Source: Acidobacteriota bacterium | Lineage (GTDB): Bacteria; Acidobacteriota; Thermoanaerobaculia; Multivoradales; UBA5704 | NCBI GenBank assembly: GCA_040005235.1 | Contig: JBDTZG010000065.1 | Span: 1-27,794 of the forward strand | Direction: 5' to 3' | Length of the DNA stretch: 27,794 nucleotides | Shown: in pieces, positions 9,325 through 23,292 of the stretch | How the letters are laid out: every line of letters starts with the position of its first letter | Numbering within the stretch: position 1 is the first letter of the stretch | Program-made: the position numbers and the translations under genes | The notes under the pieces: generated by a model | Database searches by the model: none | What the model was told of the DNA's origin: nothing | Seen by the model: only the letters and a program-made list of their open reading frames with translations

Positions 9325-9526
9325 GGGGGGAGTGAAGCAGGTGGTTTTCTGGTTCGGTTTCGATTGCATAACAGGGATCGGAGCTTTCAATTTGTGGGAT
9401 TCTGCTGCCGTGAAGTTCTCTTCCCCTCCGAAAGCAAAAACGAAGAGTGTACGCAAATCGGATCGATAGCGCTTGGGTTGCAATAGGCCAAAATGGCTTG
9501 ATTATCAAAGCTTGAGGGTTACAAAC

Positions 9527-10021
9527 ATGAAGCTTATTCCATACAGCATCTCGGATCGCTTATACCTTCTCACCCTACCAATTTTTGTTTTAAGCCTTGC
9601 TTTTTCACTTTCAACGGGCCGCTATTCGATGGCTGTCATGTCGGGCGTTGGGATTTTCACAGTCTTCATGTCGTCTTACGTTCTTCAAGATCAGCCCCCT
9701 CAAGAATCTTCCGTAAGTGAGTACTCAGAAGTGATCGATAAGATTTCTTCTCTGGGAAAGGAGCTTGGGCAACTTGGTCGCTTTTTAGATCGTGAGCGCT
9801 CGAGGGTTGCTGCTACCGAGGACACAATCCGTAAGCTCGGTGAAGAGCGGGCAAGGCTTGAGCCTCTGGTACAGACAAACAGAGAGACTGTCGATGCGAT
9901 CCTCGGCGCTCACGCCAATCGTGCTGCTCGGACTGCGTGGAAGGAACGGCTTATTGGATTTGCATTGGGCGTTTCGGCATCACTTATTGCATCGTTTATC
10001 TATGGGTACTTCAAGAGATAG
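9527..10021 (+). CDS. Hypothetical membrane protein (2 TM, coiled coil, 1 TM), lower GC
   Basis: 164 aa from ATG 9527 (GAGGG upstream); two hydrophobic stretches at the N-terminus and one at the C-terminus, heptad-like charged middle; visibly more AT-rich than the flanks. Confidence 0.65.
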   Translation: MKLIPYSISDRLYLLTLPIFVLSLAFSLSTGRYSMAVMSGVGIFTVFMSSYVLQDQPPQESSVSEYSEVIDKISSLGKELGQLGRFLDRERSRVAATEDTIRKLGEERARLEPLVQTNRETVDAILGAHANRAARTAWKERLIGFALGVSASLIASFIYGYFKR

Positions 10022-10604
10022 CGCAGCGCCTCGCCCCAGCCGAGCGCGGTCCGATGGCCATAGAGTGCGGCGGAACTAGGGCTTCGCCTTTCCGGCGATT
10101 ATTACTAACTTGCCAGGGTTTTGACGAGTACCAGAAATCCCAAGGACAACTATCTCCGCTACCATCCCCTTGACTGGCGATGTCCGGGTAGCGCAAGAGG
10201 TAACGGACGTCGTCGAGGTCGTGAAACTCCTCGCCCAGCCGCATAGGGGCACACTTCATGGCGAGAAGGTAGACCGGCCGGGCCGCGAATACCTTCAGGT
10301 GGTCGAGCTCAAGGTAGGGGTCGAAGTCGCCCCGCGGGCTCAGGTATCCCTTTACCGCGTCGTTGAGCCAGTTGTCCGGAACTCCGGCCCGTGCGGCAAC
10401 CCGGCTGGCGGCCTGCCTGACCGCTCCGGTCGGCAGGAAGTAGCCGTCCACGTCGCGCGTCGCGTGTCGGGCGTCGAGGGCCAGACACATCACGGCTCCT
10501 CCCACCAGGTAGAGCTCGCCCTGAACGTTCTCGGCGGCCAACTCTGTGTTCAGAAGATCGAACAACCGGAGCATGTCCGACCGGGTCAGGCGGGAGCCGG
10601 CCAT
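10011..10604 (-). CDS. Pol-beta-like nucleotidyltransferase (AbiEii/DUF6036-like), C-terminus possibly disrupted
   Basis: LYLVGGAVM...RHATRDVDG, WLNDAVKG, YLLAMK...R...DLDDVRYLL; after about LRYPDI the sequence loses protein-like character and overlaps the convergent gene by 11 nt. Confidence 0.7.
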   Translation of the reverse strand: MAGSRLTRSDMLRLFDLLNTELAAENVQGELYLVGGAVMCLALDARHATRDVDGYFLPTGAVRQAASRVAARAGVPDNWLNDAVKGYLSPRGDFDPYLELDHLKVFAARPVYLLAMKCAPMRLGEEFHDLDDVRYLLRYPDIASQGDGSGDSCPWDFWYSSKPWQVSNNRRKGEALVPPHSMAIGPRSAGARRCAIS

Positions 10605-10607
10605 CGT

Positions 10608-11003
10608 TTACACGCGATCGCCGACCGACGAGTCGACGAAGATGTTGCGGCGTTTGAAGGGGACCGGCGAGTTCCGCAGCAGGTGTAGTCGCAGGCCCGG
10701 AAGCGAGGTGGCGAAATGCGGTGTCGTCTCTAGAGGCACGACACCGCGCACCCAGGCGGGGGGCGGTACGTTTCGCTGGTAGGCGGTCAGCTCGACCATG
10801 GCCGCCACGTAGTTCTGTAGGTAAGGAGTAAGGCCCGTCACGTCCGCCTGCTCCACAGCGTCGCCGAACTCTTCAGGCGTGAGGCCGGCAAGAAGGTCGT
10901 TGAGCTCCGCCAGCACGAAACCGGGCTGGGCGTCTTCGCGCAGCGCCTCCAGTAAGCGGGCGAAGCACAATTGCTTGTCGGGCAGCGCTGATCTTTCGGC
11001 CAT
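10608..11003 (-). CDS. Putative antitoxin-like partner of the nucleotidyltransferase
   Basis: 3 nt upstream of the NTase start; NYVAAMVE...PPAWV..V.PL..P.F...LRLHLL..SPVPFKRRNIFVD resembles C-terminal domains of partners of DUF6036-type NTases; no HTH seen. Start uncertain (ATG 11003 or GTG 11021). Confidence 0.55.
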   Translation of the reverse strand: MAERSALPDKQLCFARLLEALREDAQPGFVLAELNDLLAGLTPEEFGDAVEQADVTGLTPYLQNYVAAMVELTAYQRNVPPPAWVRGVVPLETTPHFATSLPGLRLHLLRNSPVPFKRRNIFVDSSVGDRV

Positions 11004-11094
11004 GGACTTAGGTTCACACAAGGGCAGGAGGGCGTCAATATGCCGGTGCTAGAAACTCGCTCTGGTTACCCCAGAAACTCCCGGCAGGACCGCT

Positions 11095-11181
11095 TTGGAG
11101 TGCGCCGACGCGTCGGCGCTTTGGACGAACGTGGTGAAGTAGCGACTCCGGTCAAAGCGGCGACGCGTCGCCGCACTCCAA
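11095..11181. repeat. REP-like inverted pair (REPIN/BIME-like), GGAG-footed palindromes
   Basis: TTGGAGTGCGCCGACGCGTCGGCGCTTTG (11095-11123) and CAAAGCGGCGACGCGTCGCCGCACTCCAA (11153-11181) are 29-bp inverted repeats with 2 mismatches; each arm holds a perfect 18-bp palindrome. Confidence 0.8.
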
Positions 11182-11287
11182 GACGGTCCACTTTAGGCGC
11201 TCGCGTGGAGGAACCTCTCGTGCCCGCGTCCGGAGAGGGAGCCGTGCTCCCTTGATCCAGTTCGGAGGAACTCTAAGGCGGAAGGAA

Positions 11288-11316
11288 TTTACCAGCGGTT
11301 GAATGGGAGCTAGAAT
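11288..11316 (+). promoter_or_regulatory. Sigma70-type promoter for the small peptide gene
   Basis: TTTACC (11288-11293), 17-bp spacer, TAGAAT (11311-11316); 47 nt upstream of the ATG at 11364. Confidence 0.6.
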
Positions 11317-11363
11317 ACTTCGGCCGGGGCCGATCCCTGGCGCAATACCCTAAGGAGACCATC

Positions 11364-11525
11364 ATGAAGAAGACGAAGAAGAAGCTGGCGCTTTCAAGGG
11401 AGACGGTTTCGCTACTGGTGAACCCACAGTTAGCAGGCGCTGACGGTCCGCTTTGGTGGAACACCCATTCCTGCGGCCCCGAGGGCTCGATTTGCCTTCC
11501 AATGGACGAGTCGATGACCTGCTAA
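11364..11525 (+). CDS. 53-aa RiPP (lanthipeptide-like) precursor peptide: MKKTKKKLALSRETVSLLVNPQLAGADGPLWWNTHSCGPEGSICLPMDESMTC
   Basis: Below the ORF-track cutoff. Strong SD (TAAGGAG) 6 nt before the ATG, upstream promoter, KKLxLxRETV leader motif, AG/A small-residue junction, core with 3 Cys and 5 Ser/Thr. Confidence 0.75.
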   Translation: MKKTKKKLALSRETVSLLVNPQLAGADGPLWWNTHSCGPEGSICLPMDESMTC

Positions 11526-11622
11526 AGCCCAAACCCTATTGATGGTGGAGGGTTGCAGCTTTGATCGTCGGGCGCGACCGAAACCGGGCCGATGACTTGA
11601 ACATGAGACCGTATTCGCGCCG

Positions 11623-11734
11623 CGATTACGGCAATTGGCGTGCGATTGCGGAAAAACTATCTCGCGACTTCGGTAATCGCCGGCCGATTACGGTCTCAGC
11701 GGGCTAACTACCGAGATCGCCGAGCGGATTACGG
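11623..11734. repeat. Degenerate ~20-22-bp-phased repeat with CGATTACGG core
   Basis: Cores at 11623 CGATTACGG, 11643 CGATTGCGG, 11665 CGACTTCGG, 11685 CGATTACGG, 11705 TAACTACCG, 11726 GGATTACGG. Confidence 0.6.
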
Positions 11735-11751
11735 AGAATCGGTATCCGCCC

Positions 11752-12033
11752 GAGGGAAGAGCGATTCTGGCCCAAAATCGGTGATCCTTCCGCAGGGAGG
11801 AGCGATTCTGGCCCAAAATCAGTGATCCTTCCGGAGGGAGGAGCGATCCTGGCTCAAAATCAGTGATCCTTCCGGAGGGAGGAGCGATCCTGGCCCAAAA
11901 TCAGTGATCCTTCCGGAGGGAGGAGCGATTCTGGCTCAAAATCAGTGATCCTTCCGGAGGGAAGAGCGATTCTGGCCCAAAATCAGTGATCCTTCTGGAG
12001 GGAAGAGCGATCCTGGCCCAAAATCGGTGGTCC
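11752..12033. repeat. Tandem repeat, ~7 x 41 bp (consensus GAGGGARGAGCGATYCTGGCYCAAAATCRGTGATCCTTCCG)
   Basis: Units start at 11752, 11793, 11834, 11875, 11916, 11957 and 11998; no spacers; ends 4 nt from the type III PKS stop codon. Confidence 0.95.
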
Positions 12034-12037
12034 CCCC

Positions 12038-13099
12038 TCACCAGCGCAGCAGGACCAGCTCCGAACAGAACCCCGGCCCCATCGCGGTCAGCAATCCCCA
12101 CGAACCGGGGGCGGGGCGATGGTTTGCCATCGTCTCTTCGAGCACAATCAGCACGGAAGTCGAGGAGAGATTGCCCACCTCGCGCAGGCTTCGCCAGGTG
12201 ACGTCGAGCGCGCCTTCGGGAAGCTCCAGCGTCTCCTGCATCGTTTCGAGCACTTTCGGTCCGCCGGGGTGGCAGACCCAGCTGGCAATGTCGGCACGGG
12301 AGAGGCCGTGGTCGCCGAGGAAGGAATCGACGTCTTCCTTCATGTGCTCTTCGACCACCTTAGGCACGTCGGCGGAGAGGACGATCTTGAAGCCGGTCTC
12401 TGAGATGTCCCAACCCATCACGCGCTCGGAGTCCGGGTAGAAGATCGAGCGGGTGGCGACGATCTCCGGGCCGGAAGGCCCCTTGAGATCCTTCCGCTCG
12501 CTCCCGGCGACCAGAACAGCCGCCGCGCCGTCGCCGAATAGGCCGGAGGCGATCAGGTTAGGAATCGACAAATCCTCCCCCTGGAGGGTGAGCGAGCAGA
12601 GCTCGACCGAGAGCAGCAGCGCCACCTGATCGGGATAGGCGCGCACGTAGTCTGCCGCCCGCGCGATGCCCGCAGCGCCGGCGAGGCAGCCGAGGCCGAA
12701 CAGCGGCAGCCGCTTGATCTGCGGCGACATGCGAAGGCGGTTGATCAGCCGGGCGTCGATCGACGGGGTCGCAACCCCCGTCACCGTGGTGAAGAAGAAG
12801 GCCGAAACGTCGGTGGGGGCAAGCCCCGCGCGATCCAGCGCCTGGCGGATCGCCGCGTCCCCCACCTCTTGGGCGACGCGGATCCAGGCGTCGTTGGCTT
12901 TCCCCCAGGTGGTCAGCTGGTCGTATTCCTCGATTGGCAGCGCCAGGTGCCGGCCGCCGACCAGGACGTTCGCGTGCAGCCGCTGCAGCCGTTCGAGATT
13001 GAACAAGCGATCCTTCCATCGCCGTTCGAGCGCCGCGAGCAGGGTGGCCTGGTCGTAGAAGTGGGGCGGCAGAGCGGTGCCGACGGCGGCGATCTTCAA
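12038..13099 (-). CDS. Type III polyketide synthase (chalcone-synthase-like; alkylresorcinol/alkylpyrone synthase type)
   Basis: TTG start at 13099 with GGAAGGA SD, overlapping the upstream stop; catalytic triad GLGCLAGA (Cys), CHPGGPKV (His), GNLSSTSV (Asn); VELCSL, LFGDGAAA, AMGPGF motifs. Confidence 0.92.
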   Translation of the reverse strand: MKIAAVGTALPPHFYDQATLLAALERRWKDRLFNLERLQRLHANVLVGGRHLALPIEEYDQLTTWGKANDAWIRVAQEVGDAAIRQALDRAGLAPTDVSAFFFTTVTGVATPSIDARLINRLRMSPQIKRLPLFGLGCLAGAAGIARAADYVRAYPDQVALLLSVELCSLTLQGEDLSIPNLIASGLFGDGAAAVLVAGSERKDLKGPSGPEIVATRSIFYPDSERVMGWDISETGFKIVLSADVPKVVEEHMKEDVDSFLGDHGLSRADIASWVCHPGGPKVLETMQETLELPEGALDVTWRSLREVGNLSSTSVLIVLEETMANHRPAPGSWGLLTAMGPGFCSELVLLRW

Positions 13100-13536
13100 G
13101 CAGTGGGTCCTTCCGGATCCGGCGGGGAAACGAGGACGGACGGCGGGGGCGGAAGGGGCGCGGCCGGCCGCGCGAGCGCGCCGAGCACGAGGCCGCAGGT
13201 GGAGTAGAGGATCCACCAACGGAAGGTCATCGCCCAGTACGGATTAGGGTCGAGGCCCGCGGCGGCGATCGAAACGACCAGCAACGGCCCGCGGAACACC
13301 CAGGCGATCCACCCCGAGAGCAGTCCGGAGAACCAGACCGAGCCCCCCTCTCTGTGGATCAAAAGGAAGAGGGCGGCGAGCCCCAAAGCCTCCAGTCCCC
13401 AGGCGCCGAGCTGGACTCGGGGCGGCGACGAAGGGGGAGCCCCCGGGGGGAGCCAACCGAGCGCCGCGAGGCCGAATTGAAACAGGGCCATCACCAGAAC
13501 GAGGAGGACGATCGAGAGGGCGAGAAAGCGGCTCAA
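13096..13536 (-). CDS. Hypothetical 4-TM membrane protein, translationally coupled to the type III PKS
   Basis: Only the last 146 aa of ORF 13096..14784 look real: TTG 13536 (LSRFLALSIVLLVLV...), four hydrophobic segments, Pro-rich tail; TTGA overlap with the PKS start. Confidence 0.7.
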   Translation of the reverse strand: MSRFLALSIVLLVLVMALFQFGLAALGWLPPGAPPSSPPRVQLGAWGLEALGLAALFLLIHREGGSVWFSGLLSGWIAWVFRGPLLVVSIAAAGLDPNPYWAMTFRWWILYSTCGLVLGALARPAAPLPPPPSVLVSPPDPEGPTA

Positions 13537-13602: not shown

Positions 13603-14487
13603 ATGATCGCCGCGGAACCGCAGCCTCTGCCGCCTCCCCGGGTCGAGCTGGGCGCCCTCGACACCCTTTGGTTCCAGGTCGCCGGAACGGTGTGCAATTT
13701 GGCCTGCACCCACTGCTTCATCTCCTGCTCGCCGACCAACCATACCCACGAATTCATGTCGCTCGCCGAGGTCTCTCGCTACCTCGAAGAGGGCGCCGGC
13801 TTGGGGGTGAAGGAGTACTACTTCACCGGCGGCGAGCCGTTCTTGAATCCGGACATGGAGGCGATCCTCGAAGCCACCTTGCGGCTCGGCCCGGCGAACG
13901 TTCTGACCAACGGGCTGCTGCTCGACCCCGCCCGGGCGCAACGGTTGAAGGGCCTGGTCGACGCCTCGGAGTATTCGCTCGACCTGCGCGTCTCGCTCGA
14001 CGGCTTCGACGCTGCCACCAACGACCCGATCCGCGGCCCCGGCACGTTCGACCGCATTCTGGAGGGAATCGCGAACCTGGTGGCCGCCGGCTTGAATCCG
14101 GTGATCACGGTGACCGAGGTGCATCGGGAATCCGGTACGGACGAAGGCAAGGCCCGGTTCTTCGAGCTGTTGCGCAGCCTGGGGATCGAAAAGCCGCGGC
14201 TCAAGATTCTGCCGGTGTTCCAGATCGGCGCCGAGGCGGAACGCGGCGGCGCCTACGAAACCTGGCAGCGCCTGAGGGAAGGGGATGCCCCGGAGGGAAG
14301 CTGGGATCACCTGCAGTGCAGCGCCTGCCGGATGGTCACCGATCAAGGAGTGTGGGTCTGCCCGATCCTGGTCAACGAGCCCGACGCCAAGATGGGCGAG
14401 TCGCTCGCCGACACACTCGGGCCTTTCGCGCTCGATCACCCGGCCTGCTGGACCTGCCACGCCTACGGCGTGAGCTGCAAGACCTGA
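13603..14487 (+). CDS. Radical SAM protein with Cys-rich C-terminus, resembling arsenosugar-type (ArsS-like) rSAM enzymes
   Basis: CNLACTHC (CxxxCxxC), FTGGEPFLNP, LTNG, RVSLDG...NDPIRG.GTF; C-terminal LQCSACRM..VCP..ACWTCHAYGVSC. The rSAM call is secure; the subfamily is inferred. Confidence 0.85.
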   Translation: MIAAEPQPLPPPRVELGALDTLWFQVAGTVCNLACTHCFISCSPTNHTHEFMSLAEVSRYLEEGAGLGVKEYYFTGGEPFLNPDMEAILEATLRLGPANVLTNGLLLDPARAQRLKGLVDASEYSLDLRVSLDGFDAATNDPIRGPGTFDRILEGIANLVAAGLNPVITVTEVHRESGTDEGKARFFELLRSLGIEKPRLKILPVFQIGAEAERGGAYETWQRLREGDAPEGSWDHLQCSACRMVTDQGVWVCPILVNEPDAKMGESLADTLGPFALDHPACWTCHAYGVSCKT

Positions 14488-14515
14488 GGCGCAGTACCTG
14501 AGGCAATCCCGCGCG

Positions 14516-15541
14516 ATGGCGAATCGACCCCCGCAAAGCCTGGTGGATCCTACGGAAGAGGCGCTGCGCACCCTGCACCGGGAAAAGCTCGCGGCGCATC
14601 GCGGCCTTGCCACCTGGGGTGAAAAACTCGTGCCGCTCGGCAGCTTTCGGGCCGCGACGCAGAATGCGGGGCTTGCCCTGTCGGCCGAGGAGCGCGGACG
14701 GCGGGTTCGCGAGTTTCTCGCCGCGGGCACCGATCCGACCCCGGTCGAAGGTCCGTTTCGGCGCATCCTGGTGTTCGGCGGCATCTACAACAACCACCTG
14801 GCGCTTGGCCAGCTGCTTGAAGAAGCGGCGCGGCGGCAGGTCGATGCGGTCTACTGCCTGGGCGATCTCGGCGGTTTCGGCCCGAACCCGGAAAAAGTCT
14901 GGCCGCTGCTCCTTTCGGGAGGCGTCCGGGCGATTCAAGGCAACTACGAGGAATCGCTCGCCTCGGGCCGCGAGGACTGCAACTGCGGCTACACCGATCC
15001 CCGCGACAATCATTTCGCCGAGGTTTCCTACCGCTATACCGAGCAAAACTGCTCCGCCGACTTCAAATCCTGGATGGGCGCGCTGCCGAAACGGCGACGG
15101 GTTCAAATCGGCGGGCGCGAGCTGCTCCTGGTCCATGGCTCGCCCCGGCGGATCAATGAGTTTCTGTTCCGTTCCACAAGTCCGGTACCGTTCCTCGAAG
15201 TGTTGCTCGACCAGGAGCGGGCGGACGCCCTGCTCTGCACCCACACCGGCCTTCATTGGCATCGTCGCCTCCCCTCGGGCCGCGACGCGATCAACGTCGG
15301 CGTGATCGGCCGGCCGGCCAACGACGGCGACGTCCGCGTTTGGTATGCGATGGTTGAAGAGGGCGAGGCGGGCGATCTCGCGTTCGAGCTTGCGCCGCTT
15401 CGCTACGACCACCGGGGGCTCGCCGCCGAGATGCGCGCGGAGCGCCTGCCCGAAGAATTCGTCGAAACCGTCACCTCCGGCTGGTGGACCACCTGCCTGG
15501 AGATCCTGCCGCCGCGCGAGCGGGCGGCCTCGCGGTTCTAG
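14516..15541 (+). CDS. Calcineurin-like metallophosphoesterase-family protein with altered metal ligands and a CxC motif
   Basis: CLGDLGGFGP, IQGNYE, LVHGSPRRINEFL, CTHTG, INVGVIGRP, Y-D near the C-terminus; first motif FGGIYNN instead of xDxHxN; DCNCGY insert; ~80-aa N-terminal extension. Confidence 0.8.
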   Translation: MANRPPQSLVDPTEEALRTLHREKLAAHRGLATWGEKLVPLGSFRAATQNAGLALSAEERGRRVREFLAAGTDPTPVEGPFRRILVFGGIYNNHLALGQLLEEAARRQVDAVYCLGDLGGFGPNPEKVWPLLLSGGVRAIQGNYEESLASGREDCNCGYTDPRDNHFAEVSYRYTEQNCSADFKSWMGALPKRRRVQIGGRELLLVHGSPRRINEFLFRSTSPVPFLEVLLDQERADALLCTHTGLHWHRRLPSGRDAINVGVIGRPANDGDVRVWYAMVEEGEAGDLAFELAPLRYDHRGLAAEMRAERLPEEFVETVTSGWWTTCLEILPPRERAASRF

Positions 15542-15608
15542 GATTCGGCCAGTGCAGACCGGCGATCATCCAAAAGGTCCGTTGCCTGCGTACTCTGTAG
15601 ATACGCCG

Positions 15609-16361
15609 ATGCGTGGCCGTCCGACCCTCCTCGTCTTTTCCCGTGGCGCCTCGGCCGAGAGCGCCCGGCGGCGCTTGCTCCCGGGGCGCTTCCGCCACCT
15701 GGAAGACGAGGCCCACCGCGAGCTGCTGGAGGCGGTGCTCGACGCGGGTCGCGAAGCCAGCTGCGCGCTTGCGATTTCGAGCCCGCGGCCGCCTTGCGAA
15801 CGGTCGGGCGTCGAGCATCTGCCGCAGGCGGGCGAGACCTTCGGCGTCCGGCTGGAGGCCGCCGTGGGCGACGCGCTCGCCCGCGGGCCGGAAGTGCTTC
15901 TGGTGGCCGCGGCCGACGTGCCGGGGCTGACCTCAGAGCACGTCGAACAGGCGGTCGCGTCGCTGCGGGAAAATCCCGACCGGGTGGTCCTCGGCCCCTG
16001 CCCCGACGGCGGCCTTTACCTGATCGCGATGGCGCGACCGATTCCGGGCCTCGCCGACGCGGCACGCTGGTGTCGTCGCGCCACCCGGCGCGACCTGGAG
16101 CGCTCGCTGCTGCTTGCAGGCCGTGAAGTGGTTCGCCTCGCACCGCTCTGCGACCTCGACCGCCCGGCGGATCTGGCGGGCTGGCTGAAGCGCGGCGTCG
16201 GCGAGCAAGCGCTCGAGCGCCTCGCGCGGCTGGCCGGTTTTCTCCGCCACGCTCTCACCGCCCTTCGGTCCGGTCCGCCTCGCGACCTCGGGCTGGCGCT
16301 CGCGGGGGTCGCCCCGCTTTGTGTCGGGCGCGCTCCTCCCGCCGCTCTCTCCTTCCGCTAA
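15609..16361 (+). CDS. DUF2064 / TIGR04282-like (CofC-like GT-A fold) protein with C-terminal RAPP motif
   Basis: PQAGETFGVRL..A, AADVPGL, VVLGPCPDGGLYLI, W, LCDLDRPADL match DUF2064; the tail extends to ...LCVGRAPPAALSFR. Start placed at ATG 15609. Confidence 0.8.
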   Translation: MRGRPTLLVFSRGASAESARRRLLPGRFRHLEDEAHRELLEAVLDAGREASCALAISSPRPPCERSGVEHLPQAGETFGVRLEAAVGDALARGPEVLLVAAADVPGLTSEHVEQAVASLRENPDRVVLGPCPDGGLYLIAMARPIPGLADAARWCRRATRRDLERSLLLAGREVVRLAPLCDLDRPADLAGWLKRGVGEQALERLARLAGFLRHALTALRSGPPRDLGLALAGVAPLCVGRAPPAALSFR

Positions 16362-16464
16362 GTTTCCGTTCGCCGCTTCTGTGCGGAGCCCTGCCGTCAG
16401 CGGCGGGTGGTTCGCTCGCGTATTTCTATTTCCCGTGCGTCTCTAGAGGCGCTGGAGGTTTCTC

Positions 16465-17622
16465 ATGGCAACCCTCGCCGTCGATGACGTGGTCAAGGAT
16501 CGGTACCGTCAAGGCGCTCAAGAGCGGGTGGCCGAGCTCTGCTGCCCGGTCGAATACGACCCTAAGTATCTCGCGGTCATCCCCAACGAGGTGATCGAAC
16601 GCGACTATGGCTGCGGCGATCCGAGCAAGCACTTGAAGCCCGGCGAGACCGTGCTCGATCTCGGCAGCGGCACCGGCAAGATCTGTTTCATCGCCGCCCA
16701 GGTGGTGGGTGCGGAAGGCAAGGTGATCGGCGTCGACATGACCGATGAAATGCTCGACGTGGCGCGAAGGAACGCTCCGGTCGTGGCCGAACGGCTTGGG
16801 TTCGCAAACGTCGAGTTCCGCCGCGGCCGGATCCAGGACCTAGGCCTGGACATGGACCGGTTCGACGCCGAGCTGGCAAAGGATCCCATCCGCTCGACCG
16901 AGGGTCTGCTCCAGGCGACGACGCGCGCCGAGCGGCTGCGCCGCGAACACCCGCTGGTGGCGGACGATTCTGTCGACGTCGTGGTTTCGAACTGCGTCCT
17001 GAACCTGGTCGACGGGCACGAAAAGCCGCGCCTGTTCCGCGAGATCTTTCGCGTCTTGAGGAACGGTGGCCGGGCGGTGATCTCCGACATCGTCTGCGAC
17101 GAGGAGGTGCCGGTTTCGATGCAGCTCGACCGCGAGCTGTGGAGCGGCTGCATCTCCGGCGCGCTCACCGAGGTCGGCTTCTTGGAAGCGTTCGAGGAGG
17201 CCGGCTTTTACGGTATCCGCGTCCTCGAACGGCAGCGCGAGCCCTGGCAGACGGTCCAAGGCATCGAGTTTCGCTCGCTCACGGTCGAGGCGTGGAAGGG
17301 CAAGCAGGGGGACTGCCTGGAGCGCAACCAGGCGGTCGTCTACCGCGGCCCGTGGAAAGAGGTGCTGGACGACGACGGCCACCGCATGCTGCGCGGAGAG
17401 CGCTATGCGGTCTGCGACAAGACCTATCGCCTTTACCAGCGGGAGCCGTACGCCGGGATGTTCGACCTCGTCGATCCCCGGGTCGAGGTGCCGCTCCACG
17501 AGGCCGGACCGTTCGACTGCTCGCGCACCCTTCGTCGTCATCCGAAAGAGACCAAGGGACAGGACTACCAGGCAACCACGGAGGCTTCCACATGCTGCAC
17601 ACCCGGCTCGGATTGCTGCTGA
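16465..17622 (+). CDS. arsM: Arsenite methyltransferase-like SAM-dependent methyltransferase
   Basis: GGAGG SD; LCC, DYGCGDP, VLDLGSGTG, IGVDMTDEML, VVSNCVLNL, ISD, LWSGCISGA (ArsM-type Cys positions); extended C-terminal domain ending STCCTPGSDCC. Confidence 0.8.
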   Translation: MATLAVDDVVKDRYRQGAQERVAELCCPVEYDPKYLAVIPNEVIERDYGCGDPSKHLKPGETVLDLGSGTGKICFIAAQVVGAEGKVIGVDMTDEMLDVARRNAPVVAERLGFANVEFRRGRIQDLGLDMDRFDAELAKDPIRSTEGLLQATTRAERLRREHPLVADDSVDVVVSNCVLNLVDGHEKPRLFREIFRVLRNGGRAVISDIVCDEEVPVSMQLDRELWSGCISGALTEVGFLEAFEEAGFYGIRVLERQREPWQTVQGIEFRSLTVEAWKGKQGDCLERNQAVVYRGPWKEVLDDDGHRMLRGERYAVCDKTYRLYQREPYAGMFDLVDPRVEVPLHEAGPFDCSRTLRRHPKETKGQDYQATTEASTCCTPGSDCC

Positions 17623-18449
17623 TCGCAGCGTTTGCCGCAACTTCAGCGGCTTCCGCCCAACCCCTACGAATCAACGGCTCGACCACGGTCAATCCGGTGG
17701 TGGTCGATGCCGCAGAGCTCTTGCGGGCGGAAAAGAAGGCGACGATCTTCGTCGATACCCAGGGGGGAAGCTCGGGCGGCATCGCGGCTCTCGGCGAAGG
17801 GCGGGCGGAGATCGGCATGATCTCGCGCGAGCTGGAGCCGGACGATTCCAAGAAGTTTCCAGGCGTCCACTTCCTGGCGACCCGGATCGGCATCGACGCG
17901 CTCGCGCTGGTGGTCTCAAAGGACGTCTGGGACGGAGGGGTTAAGGTGCTCTCCCGCTCGCAGGTGCAGGAGATCTACGAGGGAAAGATCACCAATTGGA
18001 AGGCGGTCGGCGGCCCGGACCGGCGGATCGTCTTCTTCAACAAGGAGCCCGGGCGCGGCACCTGGGAGTCGTTCGCCAAGTGGCTCTACGGCGACCCGAA
18101 AAAGGCGCCTGACGTCTCGCACCCGGAAGTCGGCGCGAACGAAGAGGGGCGTAACAAAGTGGCCTCGACGCCGGGGTCGATCACGCAGCTCTCCGCCGCG
18201 TGGGCCGACCAGAAGACCGTCTTCGGGGTGGCGATCCGGAGGGGCGACGGCAAGGTCGTTTCGCCGACCCTGGCCGCAATCGCCGACGGCAGCTACCCGA
18301 TCACCCGGCCGCTTCAAGTGGTCACCGACGGGCCTCCCAAGGGGCTGGCCAAAGAGATGGTCGACCTGCTGCTTTCCCCGCGCGGGCAGGCGCTGCTCGA
18401 AAAGCACGGCTACCTGAAGAATCCTGGGGCGGGTCCGAAAGGCAAATGA
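17592..18449 (+). CDS. pstS: PstS-like periplasmic oxyanion-binding protein with altered binding residues
   Basis: ATG 17592 with a GGAGG SD inside arsM (31-nt overlap); signal peptide; INGSTTV, GGSSGG, GMISR, DALALVV, IYEGKITNWKAVGG, YPITRPL. Confidence 0.8.
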   Translation: MLHTRLGLLLIAAFAATSAASAQPLRINGSTTVNPVVVDAAELLRAEKKATIFVDTQGGSSGGIAALGEGRAEIGMISRELEPDDSKKFPGVHFLATRIGIDALALVVSKDVWDGGVKVLSRSQVQEIYEGKITNWKAVGGPDRRIVFFNKEPGRGTWESFAKWLYGDPKKAPDVSHPEVGANEEGRNKVASTPGSITQLSAAWADQKTVFGVAIRRGDGKVVSPTLAAIADGSYPITRPLQVVTDGPPKGLAKEMVDLLLSPRGQALLEKHGYLKNPGAGPKGK

Positions 18450-19372
18450 GCCGGGGCCGAAACGTTGCCGGGCGCGGCGATCAGCGGACGCCGGACTTCC
18501 TCCGGCTCGCGGCGTTCGGCTTGTCCGCTCTCGCGCTCGCCTCGTTCGCCGGCCTGGTCGCGGTGTTCGTCAACCAGGCTTGGCCGTTCTTTAAGGCCCA
18601 GGGACTTGCCGGACTGTTCGGCGTTCATTGGTCGTTCCGCTCGGAGCGCTTCGGCGCGCTGCCGATGATGTACGGCAGCCTCGCGGTGTCCGCCATCGCT
18701 CTCGTCGTGGCCGCGCCGATCGGTTGGGGCGCGGCGGTCTTCTTGGCCGAGGTCCTGCCGCGCCGCGCGCGGATCGCCGCCAAGGTCGGCGTCGAGCTGC
18801 TCGCGGGAATCCCTTCCGTGGTCTATGGCCTGCTGGGCGTTCTCCTGCTGCGCGACGCGGCGATGCGCCTCTTGCGGCCGTTCGATCCGATCTCGGGCGA
18901 TACGCTCGCGACCGGCGGCCTGCTGCTTGCGATCATGATCCTTCCGACCGTCGTTTCGCTGAGCGACGATGCGCTCGCCGCAGTGCCGAAGAGCCAGCGC
19001 TCGGCGGCCCGGGCGCTCGGGCTGGGTAAGGCCGAGACGATCCTGCGCGCCGTCGTTCCGACGGCATTGCCCGGTCTCGCCTCCGCCCTGCTGCTCGGGC
19101 TCGGTCGCGCGCTCGGCGAAACGATCGCGGTGTTTTTGGTCATCGGCCGGCAGGACAACCAGTGGCCGGAGCGTCTGTGGACCTTCGATCCGCTCGCCCG
19201 GGCAGGGCAGTCGGTCACCTCGAAACTGGGGGGTTCAGAAACCGCCGTCGCCTACGGCGATCCGATCCACTGGGGCGCTCTGCTCGGGCTCGGACTTCTG
19301 CTTTTGGCGGTGGTCGCCGGGCTCTCTTTCGCCGGTTCCTGGCTCGCGCTACGGCGGGCACCCCGTGCGTAA
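18446..19372 (+). CDS. pstC: Phosphate-type ABC transporter permease, PstC-like
   Basis: ATGA overlap with pstS; FGALPMMYGSL, ELLAGIPSVVYGL, LAIMILPTVVSLS.DAL.AVP, GLGRALGETIAV. Confidence 0.88.
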   Translation: MSRGRNVAGRGDQRTPDFLRLAAFGLSALALASFAGLVAVFVNQAWPFFKAQGLAGLFGVHWSFRSERFGALPMMYGSLAVSAIALVVAAPIGWGAAVFLAEVLPRRARIAAKVGVELLAGIPSVVYGLLGVLLLRDAAMRLLRPFDPISGDTLATGGLLLAIMILPTVVSLSDDALAAVPKSQRSAARALGLGKAETILRAVVPTALPGLASALLLGLGRALGETIAVFLVIGRQDNQWPERLWTFDPLARAGQSVTSKLGGSETAVAYGDPIHWGALLGLGLLLLAVVAGLSFAGSWLALRRAPRA

Positions 19373-20216
19373 GTGGCTCGGCAGAGGTTTTCTCGCCGCC
19401 GCGGCGCTCTGTGCCCTGGTGGTCTTCGGGGTTCTGGCGGTGGTCCTTTACGAGGTGGTCGGCCGCGGCCTTCCCGCCGTCGATCTCGCCTTCCTCATCC
19501 GCCCTTCGGTCGGCTCGGGTGGCGAAGGAGGCGTTCTGTTCGAGATCCTCGGCACGCTGATCCTGATCGGTTCCGCGTTGGCGGCCAGTTTGCCCCTCGC
19601 GGTGGGTTTGGCACTCGCGGCGACGATCTACCTCCCCTCGCCGAGGCTTCGCCGGCTCACCCTTTCCGCTCTCTATACCGCGAATTCGATCCCCTCCGTG
19701 CTGCTCGGGATCGGTGGTTTCGTCGTGTTCGTCCATGGGTTGGGGTGGGGCAAGTCGTGGCTGGGCGGCGGTCTCTTGTTGGGGCTGATGATCCTCCCCG
19801 CCGAAGCGGTCGCCCTGATCGAGCGGATCGAAGCGCTGCCGCGCCGCTATCTCGATGCGGCCTACGGCCTGGGGCTTACACGCGGCCAGGTCGCCCGGTC
19901 GATCGTGTTGCGCCAGAGCCTGGGCGGGCTGTTCTCCGGCGCTCTTCTCGGCCTGGCCCGGGCGGCCGGCGAGACCGCGCCGATCTTGTTCGCCGCCGCG
20001 GTTTTCTCCGGCGCCCGGATTCCCCAAGGGATACGGGAGAGCCCGGTGCTCGCATTGCCGTACCACATCTTCGTGCTCGCCCAGGATTCGTTCTCCCCGG
20101 CCGGGGAGCGGCACCTCTGGGGCGCCGCCCTGGTGCTTCTCGTGCTGGTAGCGGTGTTGAGCTCGATTGCACTACCCGCCCGCTTGCGGGCCCACGAGGA
20201 GTCGCGGCATGGCTGA
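19365..20216 (+). CDS. pstA: Phosphate-type ABC transporter permease, PstA-like
   Basis: GTG 19365 overlapping the pstC end; GGV...ILGT, SIPSVLLG, LGLMILP, AAYGLG, LARAAGETAPILF, LPYHIF. Confidence 0.88.
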   Translation: MRKWLGRGFLAAAALCALVVFGVLAVVLYEVVGRGLPAVDLAFLIRPSVGSGGEGGVLFEILGTLILIGSALAASLPLAVGLALAATIYLPSPRLRRLTLSALYTANSIPSVLLGIGGFVVFVHGLGWGKSWLGGGLLLGLMILPAEAVALIERIEALPRRYLDAAYGLGLTRGQVARSIVLRQSLGGLFSGALLGLARAAGETAPILFAAAVFSGARIPQGIRESPVLALPYHIFVLAQDSFSPAGERHLWGAALVLLVLVAVLSSIALPARLRAHEESRHG

Positions 20217-21090
20217 GCTTTCTCTTGCGGAGCCGGCGCTTCCGGCCGACCTCTGCTGCCCGGTGGCCGATGGAGGCGCGGCGGTTGCGGCGGTCGAGGC
20301 GAGGACCGGAGCACTCACCGCTCCGGCGCTCGAAACTCGCGGGCTCGGCGTTTCTTTTGCCGGTCGGCCGCTGCTGCGCGGCATCGACCTGCGGGTCGAG
20401 GATCGCCGCGTGCTCGCGCTGATCGGCCCTTCGGGCGCCGGCAAGACCACACTGCTGTTTTGCCTGAACCGGATGATCGAGCTCTCGCCGGGCCTGCGGC
20501 GGCAGGGCGAAGTGTTTTTGTTCGGCGAGCCCATCGCGCGACGCGACGCCGATGCGGTGCGGCGGGAGGTCGGCATGCTGTTCCAACAACCGGTGATCTT
20601 CCCGGGCGGGATCGCCGACAACGTTCTGTTCGGCCTCCGTCATTCGGGGCTCGCGCCACGGAAGAGTTTCCCCGAACGGCTGGAAAAGGCGCTTGCCGAG
20701 GCGGCCTTGTGGGACGAGGTCAAGGATCGGCTCGGCGAACCGGCCGCGAGCCTTTCGGTCGGCCAGCAGCAACGGCTATGTCTCGCCCGCGCGCTCGCGG
20801 TCGAGCCGCGTGTACTGCTTTTGGACGAACCGACCAGTGCGCTCGACCCCCGCTCCACCGAGGCGATCGAGGACCGGATTCGCGAGATTTCTAGGACCCG
20901 GGCGATCGTCCTCGTCACTCATTCGCTCGGTCAGGCGCGCCGCGTTGCCGACGAGATCGCCTGCCTCGATCGCCGCGACGGACCCGAGGGGTCGGCCGGC
21001 GAGCTGTTCGAGTGCGGCCCCTGCCGGGAGCGGCTGGAGCGACCGCTAAGCCGGGAGCTCGCCCGATTCCTCGAGAGCGAAAGAGCCTGA
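20209..21090 (+). CDS. pstB: Phosphate-type ABC transporter ATPase, PstB-like, with extra Cys motifs
   Basis: ATG 20209 overlapping pstA; ALIGPSGAGKTT..CLNRM, VGMLFQQP, AALWDEVKDRL, LSVGQQQRLCLARALAVEP.VLLLDEPTSALDP, VTH...QARRVAD. Confidence 0.9.
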   Translation: MAELSLAEPALPADLCCPVADGGAAVAAVEARTGALTAPALETRGLGVSFAGRPLLRGIDLRVEDRRVLALIGPSGAGKTTLLFCLNRMIELSPGLRRQGEVFLFGEPIARRDADAVRREVGMLFQQPVIFPGGIADNVLFGLRHSGLAPRKSFPERLEKALAEAALWDEVKDRLGEPAASLSVGQQQRLCLARALAVEPRVLLLDEPTSALDPRSTEAIEDRIREISRTRAIVLVTHSLGQARRVADEIACLDRRDGPEGSAGELFECGPCRERLERPLSRELARFLESERA

Positions 21091-21128
21091 AACTTCACCC
21101 ACTCCCCAGAAAACCAGAGGAGAGCGCC

Positions 21129-22322
21129 ATGTCGAAACCTCAGATCGCGATCCTGGGCGCCGGGCCGACCGGGCTCGAAGCAGCCCTTGCCGCCGCGGAG
21201 CGCGGCTTGCCGTTCACCCTATATGAGGCGGCGCCGCGGCCGGCGGGCCACGTCCGCTCGTGGGGGCACGTCCATCTATTTACCCCCTGGTCGATGAGCG
21301 TCTCTCCGCGGATGCGCGCGGCGCTCGAATCGGCGGGCGTTGCGGTTCCCGACGGCGAGGCCTGCCCCACCGGCGACCAGCTCGCGGAGGGCTTGCTCGA
21401 TCCGCTCGCCTCGCTTGCCGCCATCGCGCCCAATCTTCGGCTCTCCGCGCGGGTCAAGGCGGTCGGCCGCGAGGGGCTGCTCAAGCACGAGGAGATCTCA
21501 ACGCCCGCCCGGGCGGCCCGACCGTTCCGGTTGCTGGTCGAGGACGGTGAGGGCAACGAGCGGATCGAGCACGCGAGCGTCGTGATCGACACGACGGGGA
21601 CCTATTCGAACCCGAATCTGCTTGGCGACGGAGGCATCCCCGCCCCGGGCGAGCTGGCGCTCGACGGCGAGATCCGTCGGCAACTGCCGAACTTCGCGCG
21701 GGAAGGCGATTGGGCGGGCAAGACGATCCTGGTCGCCGGAGCGGGCCATTCGGCGCAGACCGCGGTTCGCGACCTGGCGAGGCTTGCCGAGAGGGCGCCC
21801 GGCACCCGGGTGATCTGGGCGATTCGCGGCGCTGCTCCTTCCCCGGCCGCGGACCACCCCGATCCGCTCCCCGAGCGGAGCGAGCTGCTGCGCGAAGCCG
21901 CGGCACTTGGGGCCGGCGGTTCGCCGGCGATCGAGGTGAGGTCCGGCGTCGCGATCGAATCTCTGCGCCGAGACGGCGAAAGAGTCGAGGTTTCGCTGCG
22001 CTCCCCCGCCGGGCAGGAGACGATCGCGGTCGATCGCATCCTGTCGCTCACCGGCTTCGTTCCGAACGATTCGATGTACCGCCAGCTCCAGATTCACGAG
22101 TGCTACGCCTTCTCCGCGCCGATGAAGCTTTCGGCGGCGCTGCTCGGCGCGGCCGGCGGAGGGGGAGACTGCCTCTCCCAGACCAGCCACGGCGCCGAGA
22201 CGCTGGTTAATCCGGAGCCGAACTTCTACATCCTGGGCATCAAGTCGTACGGCCGAAATACCAATTTCTTGATGCGGGTCGGCTGGGAACAGGTGGCGGA
22301 GGTGTTCGGCCGAATCGAATAG
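21129..22322 (+). CDS. FAD/NAD(P)-dependent oxidoreductase (flavin monooxygenase-like), of the family often seen in ars operons
   Basis: GAGGAG SD; GAGPTG (FAD), WGHVHLFTPW, VIDTTGT, GAGHSA (NAD(P)), LTGF.P, YILGIKSYGR...FLM..GWEQV. Confidence 0.8.
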   Translation: MSKPQIAILGAGPTGLEAALAAAERGLPFTLYEAAPRPAGHVRSWGHVHLFTPWSMSVSPRMRAALESAGVAVPDGEACPTGDQLAEGLLDPLASLAAIAPNLRLSARVKAVGREGLLKHEEISTPARAARPFRLLVEDGEGNERIEHASVVIDTTGTYSNPNLLGDGGIPAPGELALDGEIRRQLPNFAREGDWAGKTILVAGAGHSAQTAVRDLARLAERAPGTRVIWAIRGAAPSPAADHPDPLPERSELLREAAALGAGGSPAIEVRSGVAIESLRRDGERVEVSLRSPAGQETIAVDRILSLTGFVPNDSMYRQLQIHECYAFSAPMKLSAALLGAAGGGGDCLSQTSHGAETLVNPEPNFYILGIKSYGRNTNFLMRVGWEQVAEVFGRIE

Positions 22323-22381: not shown

Positions 22382-23227
22382 ATGAAGAGAAACGCCCTTC
22401 GGGCTTTGGCCCTTTCGACCCTCGCCTTTTCGGCGATCTCCACGAGCGCGCAGCCGCCGCAGCTGTTCGCTCCGCGCCCCTCGCCGAATGCGAGCGTCAC
22501 CCAGGCGGTTGGCCTAACCGACATCACGATTCGCTACAGCCGCCCGGGGGTCAAAGGCCGGAAGATTTGGGGCGGGCTGGTGCCTTACGGCGAGGTCTGG
22601 CGCACCGGAGCGAACGAGAACACCACGATCAGCTTCTCGACCCCGGTCAGGGTCGAGGGTCATGAGCTGCCCGCCGGCACCTATGGCGTGCAGACCATCC
22701 CGACCGAAAAGGATTGGACGCTGATCCTGTCGAAAGACGCCGACGAATGGGGCGCTTTCTCCTACAACCCGGAGCACGACGCGATGAGGGCGACCGTCTC
22801 GCCGGTTGAGAGCGGCCACGCGAAGGAGCGGATGGAGTTTTATTTCGACGACCTGACCGACAACTCGGCGACGGTCAAGCTGGTCTGGGAAAAGCTCTCC
22901 GTGCAGTTCAAGATCGAGGTCGACACGGCCGCTCAGGTGGCCGGCAAGCAGCGCTGGCAGGGACTTTTCCAGGGAGCGAACTGGTGCATCGACAATGGCT
23001 GCGCCGACAAGGCGGAGAAATGGCTCGACGCCTCGATCGCTCTCGACGCGAACTTCAACAACCTGCGCGCCGAAGCCACCCTCTACGCCAAGAACGGTCG
23101 GACCAAGGAAGCGATCGCCGCGGGTGAGCGGGCGCTCGCCGCGGCAAAGACGGCGACTCCGCCGCCGGCCGCGGACCAGGTTGCGGCGCTCGAAAAGCTG
23201 GTGGCTGAATGGAAGGCGAAGAAGTAA
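22382..23227 (+). CDS. Secreted DUF2911 protein with TPR-like C-terminus
   Basis: GAGGAG SD; signal peptide; SP.ASV.Q.VGLTDITI.YSRP.VKGRKIWG.LVPYGEVWRTGANE.T...LPAGTY; helical tail. Confidence 0.88.
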   Translation: MKRNALRALALSTLAFSAISTSAQPPQLFAPRPSPNASVTQAVGLTDITIRYSRPGVKGRKIWGGLVPYGEVWRTGANENTTISFSTPVRVEGHELPAGTYGVQTIPTEKDWTLILSKDADEWGAFSYNPEHDAMRATVSPVESGHAKERMEFYFDDLTDNSATVKLVWEKLSVQFKIEVDTAAQVAGKQRWQGLFQGANWCIDNGCADKAEKWLDASIALDANFNNLRAEATLYAKNGRTKEAIAAGERALAAAKTATPPPAADQVAALEKLVAEWKAKK

Positions 23228-23257: not shown

Positions 23258-23292
23258 GGGCGGGGCTCGAAAGGGTCCCGCCCTTTCTTTTT
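23258..23292 (+). terminator. Intrinsic terminator after DUF2911
   Basis: 11-bp stem GGGCGGGGCTC / GGGTCCCGCCC (2 G-U pairs), GAAA loop, followed by TTTCTTTTT; lies between convergent genes. Confidence 0.85.

Follow-up and report, generated by a model that had tools for sequence, protein, structure and literature searches.

Nine genes lying on the same strand at positions 13603 to 22322 (+) of a 27,794-nucleotide stretch from a soil-dwelling Acidobacteriota bacterium (GenBank assembly GCA_040005235.1, contig JBDTZG010000065.1; the whole stretch, contig C58 in our numbering, is called the window here) can with good confidence be assigned to an arsenic-transforming pathway built on an enzyme of the radical S-adenosylmethionine (SAM) kind, hereafter the rSAM. 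In order, they encode the rSAM, a metallophosphoesterase-fold protein (MPE), a DUF2064 protein, an ArsM-type methyltransferase, the 4 components of a PstSCAB transporter, and a flavoprotein. A more specific proposal, toward which we lean, is that the locus is an arsenic-dedicated, biosynthesis-type operon in which arsenate is imported, reduced, and made into an organoarsenical; that its Pst system carries arsenate is, in our estimate, somewhat probable. Two observations, the constancy of the rSAM, MPE, and flavoprotein genes across relatives and the optional character of the block between them, lead to the view that the operon consists of a stable 3-gene core and an optional cassette.

The surveys behind this view covered 61 genomes of the same order, 20-kb neighborhoods from 20 of them, and 80 loci that a scan of species-level genomes had returned. 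Presence counts were restricted to 47 of the 80, those in which the rSAM gene is flanked by 9 kb or more on either side. The rSAM was found in 54 of the 61 genomes at 66% to 96% identity, and its gene is adjacent to that for the MPE in 75 of the 80 related loci, 3 of the 5 exceptions having less than 350 nt of locus past the rSAM gene. Among the 47 loci, the MPE is present in 46 and the flavoprotein in 42; ArsM is present in 28, DUF2064 in 22, and PstSCAB in 13, of which 12 also carry ArsM. An ArsM orthologue (at least 68% identity) occurs in 25 of the 61 genomes and is on the same contig as the rSAM in all except 2 (G047, which gave no rSAM match, and G055, which has the ArsM and rSAM genes on separate small contigs). 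The DUF2064-ArsM-PstSCAB block takes 1 of 2 positions, either 5′ of the rSAM gene or, as in the window, in the interval between the MPE and flavoprotein genes; a same-genus genome (L036) is without the block, and there the MPE and flavoprotein genes are 24 nt apart. The recurrence of the gene set exceeds chance by far, and the whole arrangement recurs in relatives. An earlier note on this DNA had named conservation of the set elsewhere as a point to check: the rSAM, MPE, and flavoprotein are constant, and ArsM, DUF2064, and Pst are optional; the coupling of ArsM to the importer, which it had stressed, is itself conserved. Since ArsM, DUF2064, and Pst are optional, the "methylated and adenosylated" product that had been suggested is not established.

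The rSAM (13603 to 14487, +; 294 aa; Pfam Radical_SAM, 77.4 bits) carries its CX3CX2C motif at C31/C35/C38 and has C-terminal cysteines at C239, C253, C282, C285, and C292, the last 3 in the pattern C282-x2-C285-x6-C292. Across 101 sequences, C239 and C253 never vary, and C282 and C285 hold in 100; in a 28-sequence alignment, C31/C35/C38, C239, C253, C282, and C285 are all invariant. Placed against ArsS (TIGR04167) and ArsL, the 2 radical SAM enzymes that had been offered as models, it belongs to neither. Identity with ArsS is ruled out by a score of 47.2 bits against a cut-off of 300, confined to model positions 6 to 147 of 303, and Pfam DUF3641, the C-terminal domain of ArsS, was not called on the protein. 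Identity with ArsL is ruled out both by family score, NF040542 falling outside the 25 best of the 38 NCBIfam matches (E worse than 8.5e-10), and by motif position: CX3CX2C lies at residues 31 to 38 in the rSAM versus 194 to 201 in BgArsL, the ArsL architecture having about 190 aa ahead of the motif. The top NCBIfam match is the uncharacterized Rv1681 family at 99.4 bits (cut-off 380), and the nearest solved structures, BlsE, SkfB, viperin, and MoaA, match over the core only. What emerges is a separate family related to ArsS. When the family alignment was compared by hhalign with ArsS halves taken from 2 metagenomic ArsS-ArsM fusion proteins, the probabilities were 98.6% and 98.5% over 269 and 267 columns, and 5 C-terminal cysteines of the family paired one-to-one with those of the ArsS halves; a SPASM-type control rSAM from the same genome aligned over 157 core columns only. 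From these alignments, we take the rSAM to represent a large family that is sister to ArsS and shares its architecture.

Homologues in other phyla join the rSAM physically to the other genes of the operon. Fusions of the rSAM to ArsM (P0141, P0273) occur in Planctomycetota/Brocadiales, the methyltransferase half scoring 237 to 239 bits on NF008823, and they bear out the idea that ArsM is functionally tied to the rSAM. In a DUF2064-rSAM fusion (P0250), the DUF2064 half reaches TIGR04282 at 163.6 bits, above the cut-off; P0270 joins a Metallophos_2 MPE to the rSAM; and P0126 and P0147, from Zixibacteria and Planctomycetaceae, are flavoprotein-rSAM fusions. The general proposal that had been made for the locus, an arsenic-centered, biosynthesis-like cluster and not a resistance operon, has held up. 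The family is also widespread, with 125 rSAM clusters at E ≤ 1e-30 among 50%-identity representatives, and 583 confirmed relatives in species-level genomes; of 8000 soil-metagenome proteins scored, 6581 reach E ≤ 1e-10. A metagenome scan with the rSAM-ArsM fusion as query gave mostly plain ArsM genes; only L139 to L142, L146, L147, and L178 matched both halves. L139 has no MPE or flavoprotein gene downstream, and L146 (9581 to 12703) encodes a 1041-aa protein with Radical_SAM, Methyltransf_31, and DUF5714 domains, an rSAM-methyltransferase fusion of a different kind.

For the MPE (14516 to 15541, +; 341 aa; Pfam Metallophos_2, 35.9 bits), a role in processing an intermediate had been suggested; judging from sequence comparison, it is most likely the Car1-type arsenate reductase of the operon. 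Compared with the canonical 3RQZ, its motif I is degenerate (GGIY, not D-x-H) and GNYE replaces GNHD in motif III; acquired features are an invariant D-C-N-C-G-Y and an N-terminal extension, also conserved, of about 80 aa. C155, C157, and C327 are invariant in 95 of 95 sequences, the first 2 forming the pair C155-N-C157. The protein gave no NCBIfam match whatever, which rules out TIGR04168. Car1 of Rufibacter tibetensis is reported to be an As(V) reductase of the metallophosphoesterase family in which Cys74 and Cys76 are essential (PMC12124457, citing Shen et al. 2024). A tblastn search of plasmids with the MPE returned 84 records, 12 of them from Hymenobacter, and on plasmid pHA of Hymenobacter sp. 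APR13 the homologue lies within ArsR-DUF6428-MPE-GNAT-ACR3, with no ArsC among these genes. The pHA protein is 32% identical to the window MPE (E 8e-39), and its C74-G-C76 pairs with C155-N-C157; the comparison thus ran via the Hymenobacter homologue, the residue numbers being those quoted for Car1. The likeness to Car1 therefore extends to the MPE fold, the position of the CxC at Cys74/Cys76, and GNY for GNH, and a homologue from the bacterial family of Rufibacter occupies the place of ArsC in an ars operon. The differences are that the window MPE is only 32% identical to that homologue and has lost the D-x-H of motif I, that it adds the N-terminal extension and the third invariant cysteine, C327, and that its partner is in every case an rSAM gene and not an efflux pump. 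Because the MPE is probably the arsenate reductase, the absence of ArsC is not a gap in the pathway.

The third core gene (21129 to 22322, +) encodes a 397-aa two-Rossmann FAD/NAD(P)H flavoprotein (Pfam Pyr_redox_2 and NAD_binding_8). Homologues were found in 153 plasmid records, 147 of them covering at least 80% of the query at 33% to 36% identity, and all 5 that were inspected, a non-random choice from the top 20 matches, lie in ars operons (Arthrobacter, Nitrobacter, Shinella, Rathayibacter, and Dietzia). All 75 sequences compared keep C325 and C348. ArsO was ruled out as an identity, NF040505 giving 23.5 bits against a cut-off of 425. A structural model (pLDDT 74.3) found its best fold match in the YpdA/Bdr disulfide reductases, followed by thioredoxin reductase-like ferredoxin-NADP reductases and then by N-hydroxylases, so the fold search fails to separate reductase from monooxygenase, and the segment with C325 and C348 has pLDDT below 50. 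The suggestion that the flavoprotein sets the As(III)/As(V) state is supported as to the arsenic connection, the family occurring in ars operons; the particular function becomes one of several candidate roles. On plasmids of Nitrobacter, Shinella, and Streptomyces (L224, L225, L228), an ArsR-flavoprotein-MFS unit recurs, and no named ars gene was found to correspond to this unit.

Turning to the cassette, the ArsM-type SAM methyltransferase (16465 to 17622, +; 385 aa) is closest to the arsinothricin-type model, NF040538, at 326.1 bits (cut-off 500), with 210.1 bits on NF008823 (cut-off 263) and 121 on NF038099 (cut-off 400), and is thus under all 3 curated cut-offs. The 4 conserved catalytic cysteines expected of an ArsM are nonetheless all present, with spacing (24, 127, 52) identical to that of Cys30/54/181/233 in BgArsM (PMC8552651). 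None of C26, C27, C50, C177, and C229 varies among 48 sequences, and a CC pair lies near both ends of the protein. In the arsinothricin pathway, as described in PMC8552651, ArsM follows the radical SAM enzyme, and ArsL alone still yields a product, AST-OH; the optional presence of ArsM here would be explained if it acts after the rSAM step, as in that order. A second ArsM-like gene of the genome, on contig C102 and 34% identical, lies outside any ars operon, its neighbors being genes for a sigma-54 activator and a Ser/Thr kinase. The DUF2064/TIGR04282-like protein (15609 to 16361, +; 250 aa), of nucleotidyl- or glycosyl-transferase fold, clears the Pfam DUF2064 cut-off (64.3 bits against 25.8) and falls short of TIGR04282 (81.4 bits against 134). 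The earlier note held that such proteins accompany ArsS-type genes, and they were indeed seen beside metagenomic ArsS-ArsM fusions. These are L141 (7796 to 12634) and L142 (7153 to 12353), which encode true ArsS(DUF3641)-ArsM fusion proteins with GT2, a class-I flavoprotein disulfide reductase, a DedA/VTT membrane protein, and DUF2064 as neighbors, L141 additionally having a PHO4 phosphate permease and a DSP phosphatase. In composition, this gene set is analogous to that of the window and not orthologous.

The transporter comprises PstS (17592 to 18449, +; a periplasmic binding protein of 285 aa with a signal peptide), the permeases PstC (18446 to 19372, +) and PstA (19365 to 20216, +; GTG start), and the ATPase PstB (20209 to 21090, +). 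Only PstC passes its equivalog model (TIGR02138, 218.9 bits against 196.45); PstS (TIGR02136, 159.5 against 206.6), PstA (TIGR00974, 157.8 against 193.45), and PstB (TIGR00972, 253.7 against 343.2) all fail. A separate housekeeping system, whose existence had been named as a point to check, is present: the source genome (6.2 Mb in 140 contigs, with a completeness rating of 100%) has a second pstSCAB on contig C56 and PhoU genes on C76 and C118, and the window PstB is 41% identical to the PstB on C56, so that the Pst of the window is an accessory paralogue. The best PDB relatives of the window PstS are the S-type proteins 4GD5 and 4Q8R. S-type PstS proteins are described as being without the Asp of the low-barrier hydrogen bond and as discriminating between phosphate and arsenate much less well (PMC13614923). 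With the S-type binding proteins treated there (C. perfringens PBP-1 4GD5/4Q8R, SphX, and Sll0540), the window protein has in common the pocket motifs GSTT, GGSSGG, SR, and RP, which are common to phosphate and arsenate binders, and the Asp to Ser change. It differs in the anion loop, which reads SREDGSGT in PBP-1 versus NKEPGRGT here, an Arg to Lys and a Ser to Arg replacement. The canonical R-x3-S-G-T is thus absent from the window PstS, and the housekeeping PstS copies of the same genome retain R…SGT. A loop of the form [NS]KE[PA]GRGT is found in 19 of 19 neighborhood PstS orthologues, and the same loop type in the best 120 of 1926 database PstS homologues (E ≤ 1e-20). Literature searches, which were without most subscription journals, turned up no publication on this PstS loop type, on the rSAM family, or on the gene set, and so the statement that the set is undescribed stands.

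The company kept by this PstS clade bears on what it may carry. Clade members (at least 55% identity) occur in 17 of the 61 relatives: 14 genomes have them next to the ArsM orthologue, 1 next to the rSAM with no ArsM, and 2 (G013 and G026) in a different cluster. Counted otherwise, 16 of the 17 have the clade PstS beside an ArsM-type methyltransferase, and none of the 17 has it with an efflux gene. The different cluster, a second arsenic cluster at G013:C3:2039000-2057000 (L219) and G026:C4:2271000-2290000 (L220), encodes a NifS-like desulfurase, an ArsL-like/CUAEP-tail-type rSAM, an ArsM-like methyltransferase, an M20 deacylase, and a PstSCAB with NKEPGRGT, to which L220 adds a GNAT protein and an ArsR-ArsC fusion. 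Its ArsL-like rSAMs score 304 to 318 bits on the ArsL model (cut-off 450), and its gene content suggests a pathway of the arsinothricin type that has an importer to itself. The best plasmid match to the window PstS, on a Streptomyces plasmid, is 46% identical (the next being no more than 35%) and has the same KEPGRGT loop; its operon, ArsR-PstS-PstC-PstB, has aroA and gpmI homologues as neighbors and is part of an ars island in which ACR3 is also present. Homologues of aroA and gpmI are given as the hallmark of the bisenarsan cluster, in which synthesis begins with As(V) (PMC4943196, PMC12159101), and in the S. lividans cluster a binding-protein gene is reported to be induced when arsenate is high and phosphate is low (PMC4943196). 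Three further plasmid PstS genes served as controls. Two of them, from a Bacteroides pst-phoU operon and a solitary Salinivibrio gene, have R…SG[TS]; the third, in an ArsR-headed pstSCAB on the Pseudanabaena galeata plasmid pPg_02 (L231, 3408 to 7281), encodes a PstS with the loop NKAEGRST, showing the same K/R swap.

The observations consist of the genes present, their conservation, the fusions, the homologies, and the loop signature; from them we infer each chemical step, and above all the transported anion, of the following scheme. A specialized PstSCAB with an altered anion loop would import arsenate as feedstock; the MPE, acting as a Car1-type enzyme, would turn As(V) into As(III) by way of Cys155 and Cys157; the rSAM would hold As(III) through its C-terminal cysteines and form the C-As bond by joining to it a radical derived from SAM; the arsinothricin-type ArsM would methylate the arsenical; DUF2064 would contribute some further step; and the flavoprotein might re-reduce either the reductase or the Fe-S cluster, or set the redox state of the product. 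The end product would be an organoarsenical, methylated in this genome. Arsenate is favored as the anion because the clade follows ArsM-type and rSAM genes, and not efflux operons, in the 61 relatives, because the bisenarsan-type partner pathway takes As(V) directly, and because the PstS is of the poorly selective type. It is tempting to go further, and we do so only tentatively: the clade defined by the PstS loop might be dedicated to arsenate uptake and feed at least 3 unrelated routes to the C-As bond, through the ArsS-related rSAM, the ArsL-like rSAMs, and a bisenarsan-type AroA/mutase pair, in which case it would be the first transporter known to have evolved for taking arsenic in instead of keeping it out, and the rSAM might then be a third class of C-As radical SAM enzyme with an obligate Car1-type partner.

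Several features of the data weigh against the scheme, and some of them lend themselves to a rather different account of the transporter. The housekeeping PstS copies also have Ser at the S-type position, so S-type status is not distinguishing, and the loop change alone does not indicate arsenate. Moreover, a search of the whole genome for Acr3 (TIGR00832), ArsB (PF02040), and Grx-type ArsC (PF03960) found none, other exporter families having been outside that search, and the only ArsC-like gene found was an ArsR-ArsC(LMWP)-like fusion at C59:70081-70806; to import arsenate with no Acr3 or ArsB detected would be risky for the cell. The same arsenic pathway could be retained with a Pst that imports phosphate, securing P when arsenate competes, the operon serving to detoxify leaked arsenate. 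A phosphate-selective Pst induced by arsenic would give the identical gene linkage. Pst and pho genes are known beside arsenic islands (PMC3834237), ArsR-headed pst operons fit a protective phosphate supply induced by arsenic, PstC passes its equivalog cut-off, and the hazard of importing arsenate would disappear; the induction by arsenate and low phosphate in S. lividans fits as well (PMC4943196), but fits arsenate import equally. Against phosphate import, the PstS is of the S type, without the Asp credited with high phosphate selectivity; its canonical Arg and Ser have been replaced in a clade-specific manner; and in the relatives it lies beside an ArsM-type gene in 16 of 17 genomes and beside the rSAM alone in the other, with no efflux gene in any. 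The Streptomyces copy adjoins bisenarsan-type genes, though ACR3 is present in its island, and a bisenarsan-type pathway uses As(V) as its substrate. Finally, the block is missing from L036, which keeps the core, and this would be unexpected of a general protection of P supply. On balance, we consider phosphate import unlikely, if far from negligible.

Another way to explain the remodeled loop, which through Arg to Lys and Ser to Arg has one extra basic side chain, is that the Pst variant imports some other oxyanion: methylarsonate or another organoarsenical for salvage, as the earlier note had raised, or antimonate, or a reduced P compound. The closeness of the ArsM to the arsinothricin type, whose methylation substrate is an organoarsenical instead of arsenite, would suit such a ligand. 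However, the remaining pocket motifs (GSTT, GGSSGG, SR, and RP) are as in phosphate and arsenate binders, and the Car1-type reductase of the core, like the ArsC fusion of the ArsL-like cluster, points to inorganic As(V), so that we judge this explanation improbable. A further departure would be to deny the core any arsenic chemistry and to regard the rSAM, MPE, and flavoprotein as housekeeping, for example in nucleotide or cofactor modification, with an ArsM/Pst cassette that happened to land nearby. That 54 of 61 genomes have the core, and that its syntenic surroundings are stable, lends itself to this idea, as do the top NCBIfam match to the uncharacterized Rv1681 family and the fact that the nearest solved relatives of the rSAM include enzymes acting on nucleosides or nucleotides (BlsE, viperin, and MoaA); an rSAM identity of 66% to 96% across the order looks more like that of a housekeeping enzyme than of one for a secondary metabolite, and must be counted against the arsenic scheme. 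But the housekeeping idea would leave unexplained the fusions of the rSAM to ArsM and TIGR04282 in other phyla, the full-length architectural likeness to ArsS, the Car1-type CxC pair of the MPE, the homologues of MPE and flavoprotein inside ars operons, and the cassette adjoining the core in 2 differing arrangements, and we hold it to be highly improbable. Returning to the proposed biosynthetic operon, the objections that remain are that the rSAM, ArsM, DUF2064, PstS, PstA, and PstB are all below NCBIfam cut-offs; that motif I is lost in the MPE but retained by the Hymenobacter homologue; that ArsM orthologues in 25 of 61 genomes, compared with 54 for the rSAM, mean that the core is often without ArsM; and that in G011 (also L082 and L221) the Pst adjoins the rSAM with no ArsM present.

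Among known systems, the Synechocystis-type ArsM/ArsS arsenosugar cassette, in which ArsS adds a 5′-deoxyadenosyl group to dimethylarsenite, resembles the window set in its parts: an rSAM with CX3CX2C and a Cys-rich C terminus, ArsM, and DUF2064. True ArsS-ArsM loci also have DUF2064, a flavoprotein disulfide reductase, and a phosphatase, with a PHO4 permease in 1 of 2. The partners are not orthologous, however, the window having an MPE versus a DSP phosphatase, another flavoprotein class, and a Pst versus a PiT transporter, and its ArsM is optional and nearer to the arsinothricin type (326 versus 121 bits). The arsQML operon of Burkholderia gladioli (PMC8552651) likewise pairs an rSAM with an ArsM of the same 4-Cys spacing, and relatives of the window organism join an ArsL-like cluster to the same PstS clade; in contrast, BgArsL has 428 aa with its motif at 194 to 201, as against 294 aa and 31 to 38 in the window rSAM, and the window has no ArsQ exporter and instead an importer, a reductase, and a flavoprotein. 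With the bisenarsan cluster (S. lividans/S. coelicolor, BGC0001283; PMC4943196, PMC12159101), the resemblance is in the binding-protein ABC transporter, the ArsR, and the induction by arsenate and low phosphate; at the sequence level, the PstS of the Streptomyces plasmid stood in for the cluster's own binding protein, SLI_1099. That cluster belongs to another phylum and is reported to form its C-As bond without SAM enzymes (PMC12159101), and its transporter was first annotated as a phosphonate transporter (PMC4943196).

What is new here is the way in which core, ArsM, and Pst are nested, the alignment evidence linking the MPE to the CxC of Car1, and the PstS loop signature beside 3 kinds of arsenic cluster; no study of PstS proteins with this loop type was found in the literature searched. 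Arsenate is generally held to enter cells solely by accident, through phosphate transporters. If the proposed function of the Pst is correct, there would be deliberate acquisition of arsenic, by a binding-protein clade that travels with arsenic-building clusters in both Acidobacteriota and Actinomycetota. The rSAM family would constitute a third rSAM-ArsM pairing beside those of ArsS and ArsL, and it may explain some of the unassigned organoarsenic species in soils, including paddy soils, where speciation affects crops. If the MPE has been read correctly, the Car1 class would extend beyond resistance operons.

As to the layout of the locus, the coordinates agree with the original description of 9 co-oriented genes with an overlapping chain from arsM to pstB: the overlaps are 31 nt (arsM/pstS), 4 nt (pstS/pstC), 8 nt (pstC/pstA), and 8 nt (pstA/pstB), and the gaps are 28 nt between the rSAM and MPE genes, 67 nt between MPE and DUF2064, 103 nt between DUF2064 and arsM, and 38 nt between pstB and the flavoprotein gene. 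The absence of ArsR, ArsC, Acr3/ArsB, and PhoU from the window was borne out by a Pfam scan of the 34 other open reading frames (ORFs). Of the cysteine motifs that had been singled out, all are present in the sequence, and those of the rSAM, MPE, and ArsM are conserved; the CC and CxxC of PstB are not, being kept in 6 to 14 of 16 sequences, and are noise. Scans with models not tuned to Acidobacteriota found neither a sigma-70-like promoter nor a Pho box of the E. coli type, and Rfam and tRNA scans of the window gave no match. Downstream, a tenth co-oriented gene (22382 to 23227, +) encodes a DUF2911 protein with a signal peptide (182.8 bits); it lies 3′ of the flavoprotein gene in many loci, with or without Pst, and is a conserved neighbor whose belonging to the module is uncertain. 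It is followed by a terminator-like hairpin (23258 to 23283, +) of 11 pairs, 9 of them G-C, and then a T run, which ranks strongest of 13 terminator-like sites (shuffled sequence has a mean of 8.3 sites) and is the likely end of the transcription unit.

Upstream, and divergent from the rSAM gene, is a type III polyketide synthase gene (12038 to 13219, −), whose best NCBIfam match, at 197 bits against a cut-off of 425, is DpgA. Present in 35 of the 47 loci, it was considered as a pathway member; it is absent from more distant loci that keep ArsM, rSAM, MPE, and flavoprotein and is therefore treated as synteny. The window as a whole has a G+C content of about 64% to 70%, and the names carried by close homologues assign its genome to Thermoanaerobaculia within Acidobacteriota. 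Between the genes for an M49 peptidase and the polyketide synthase lies a stretch of about 2.7 kb (9300 to 12030) of low G+C (0.54 to 0.58 versus about 0.67), whose ORFs, including 10011 to 10604 (−) and 10608 to 11021 (−), are small and have no Pfam match; it is taken to be an insertion because its 2 flanking genes are 11 nt apart in a same-genus genome.

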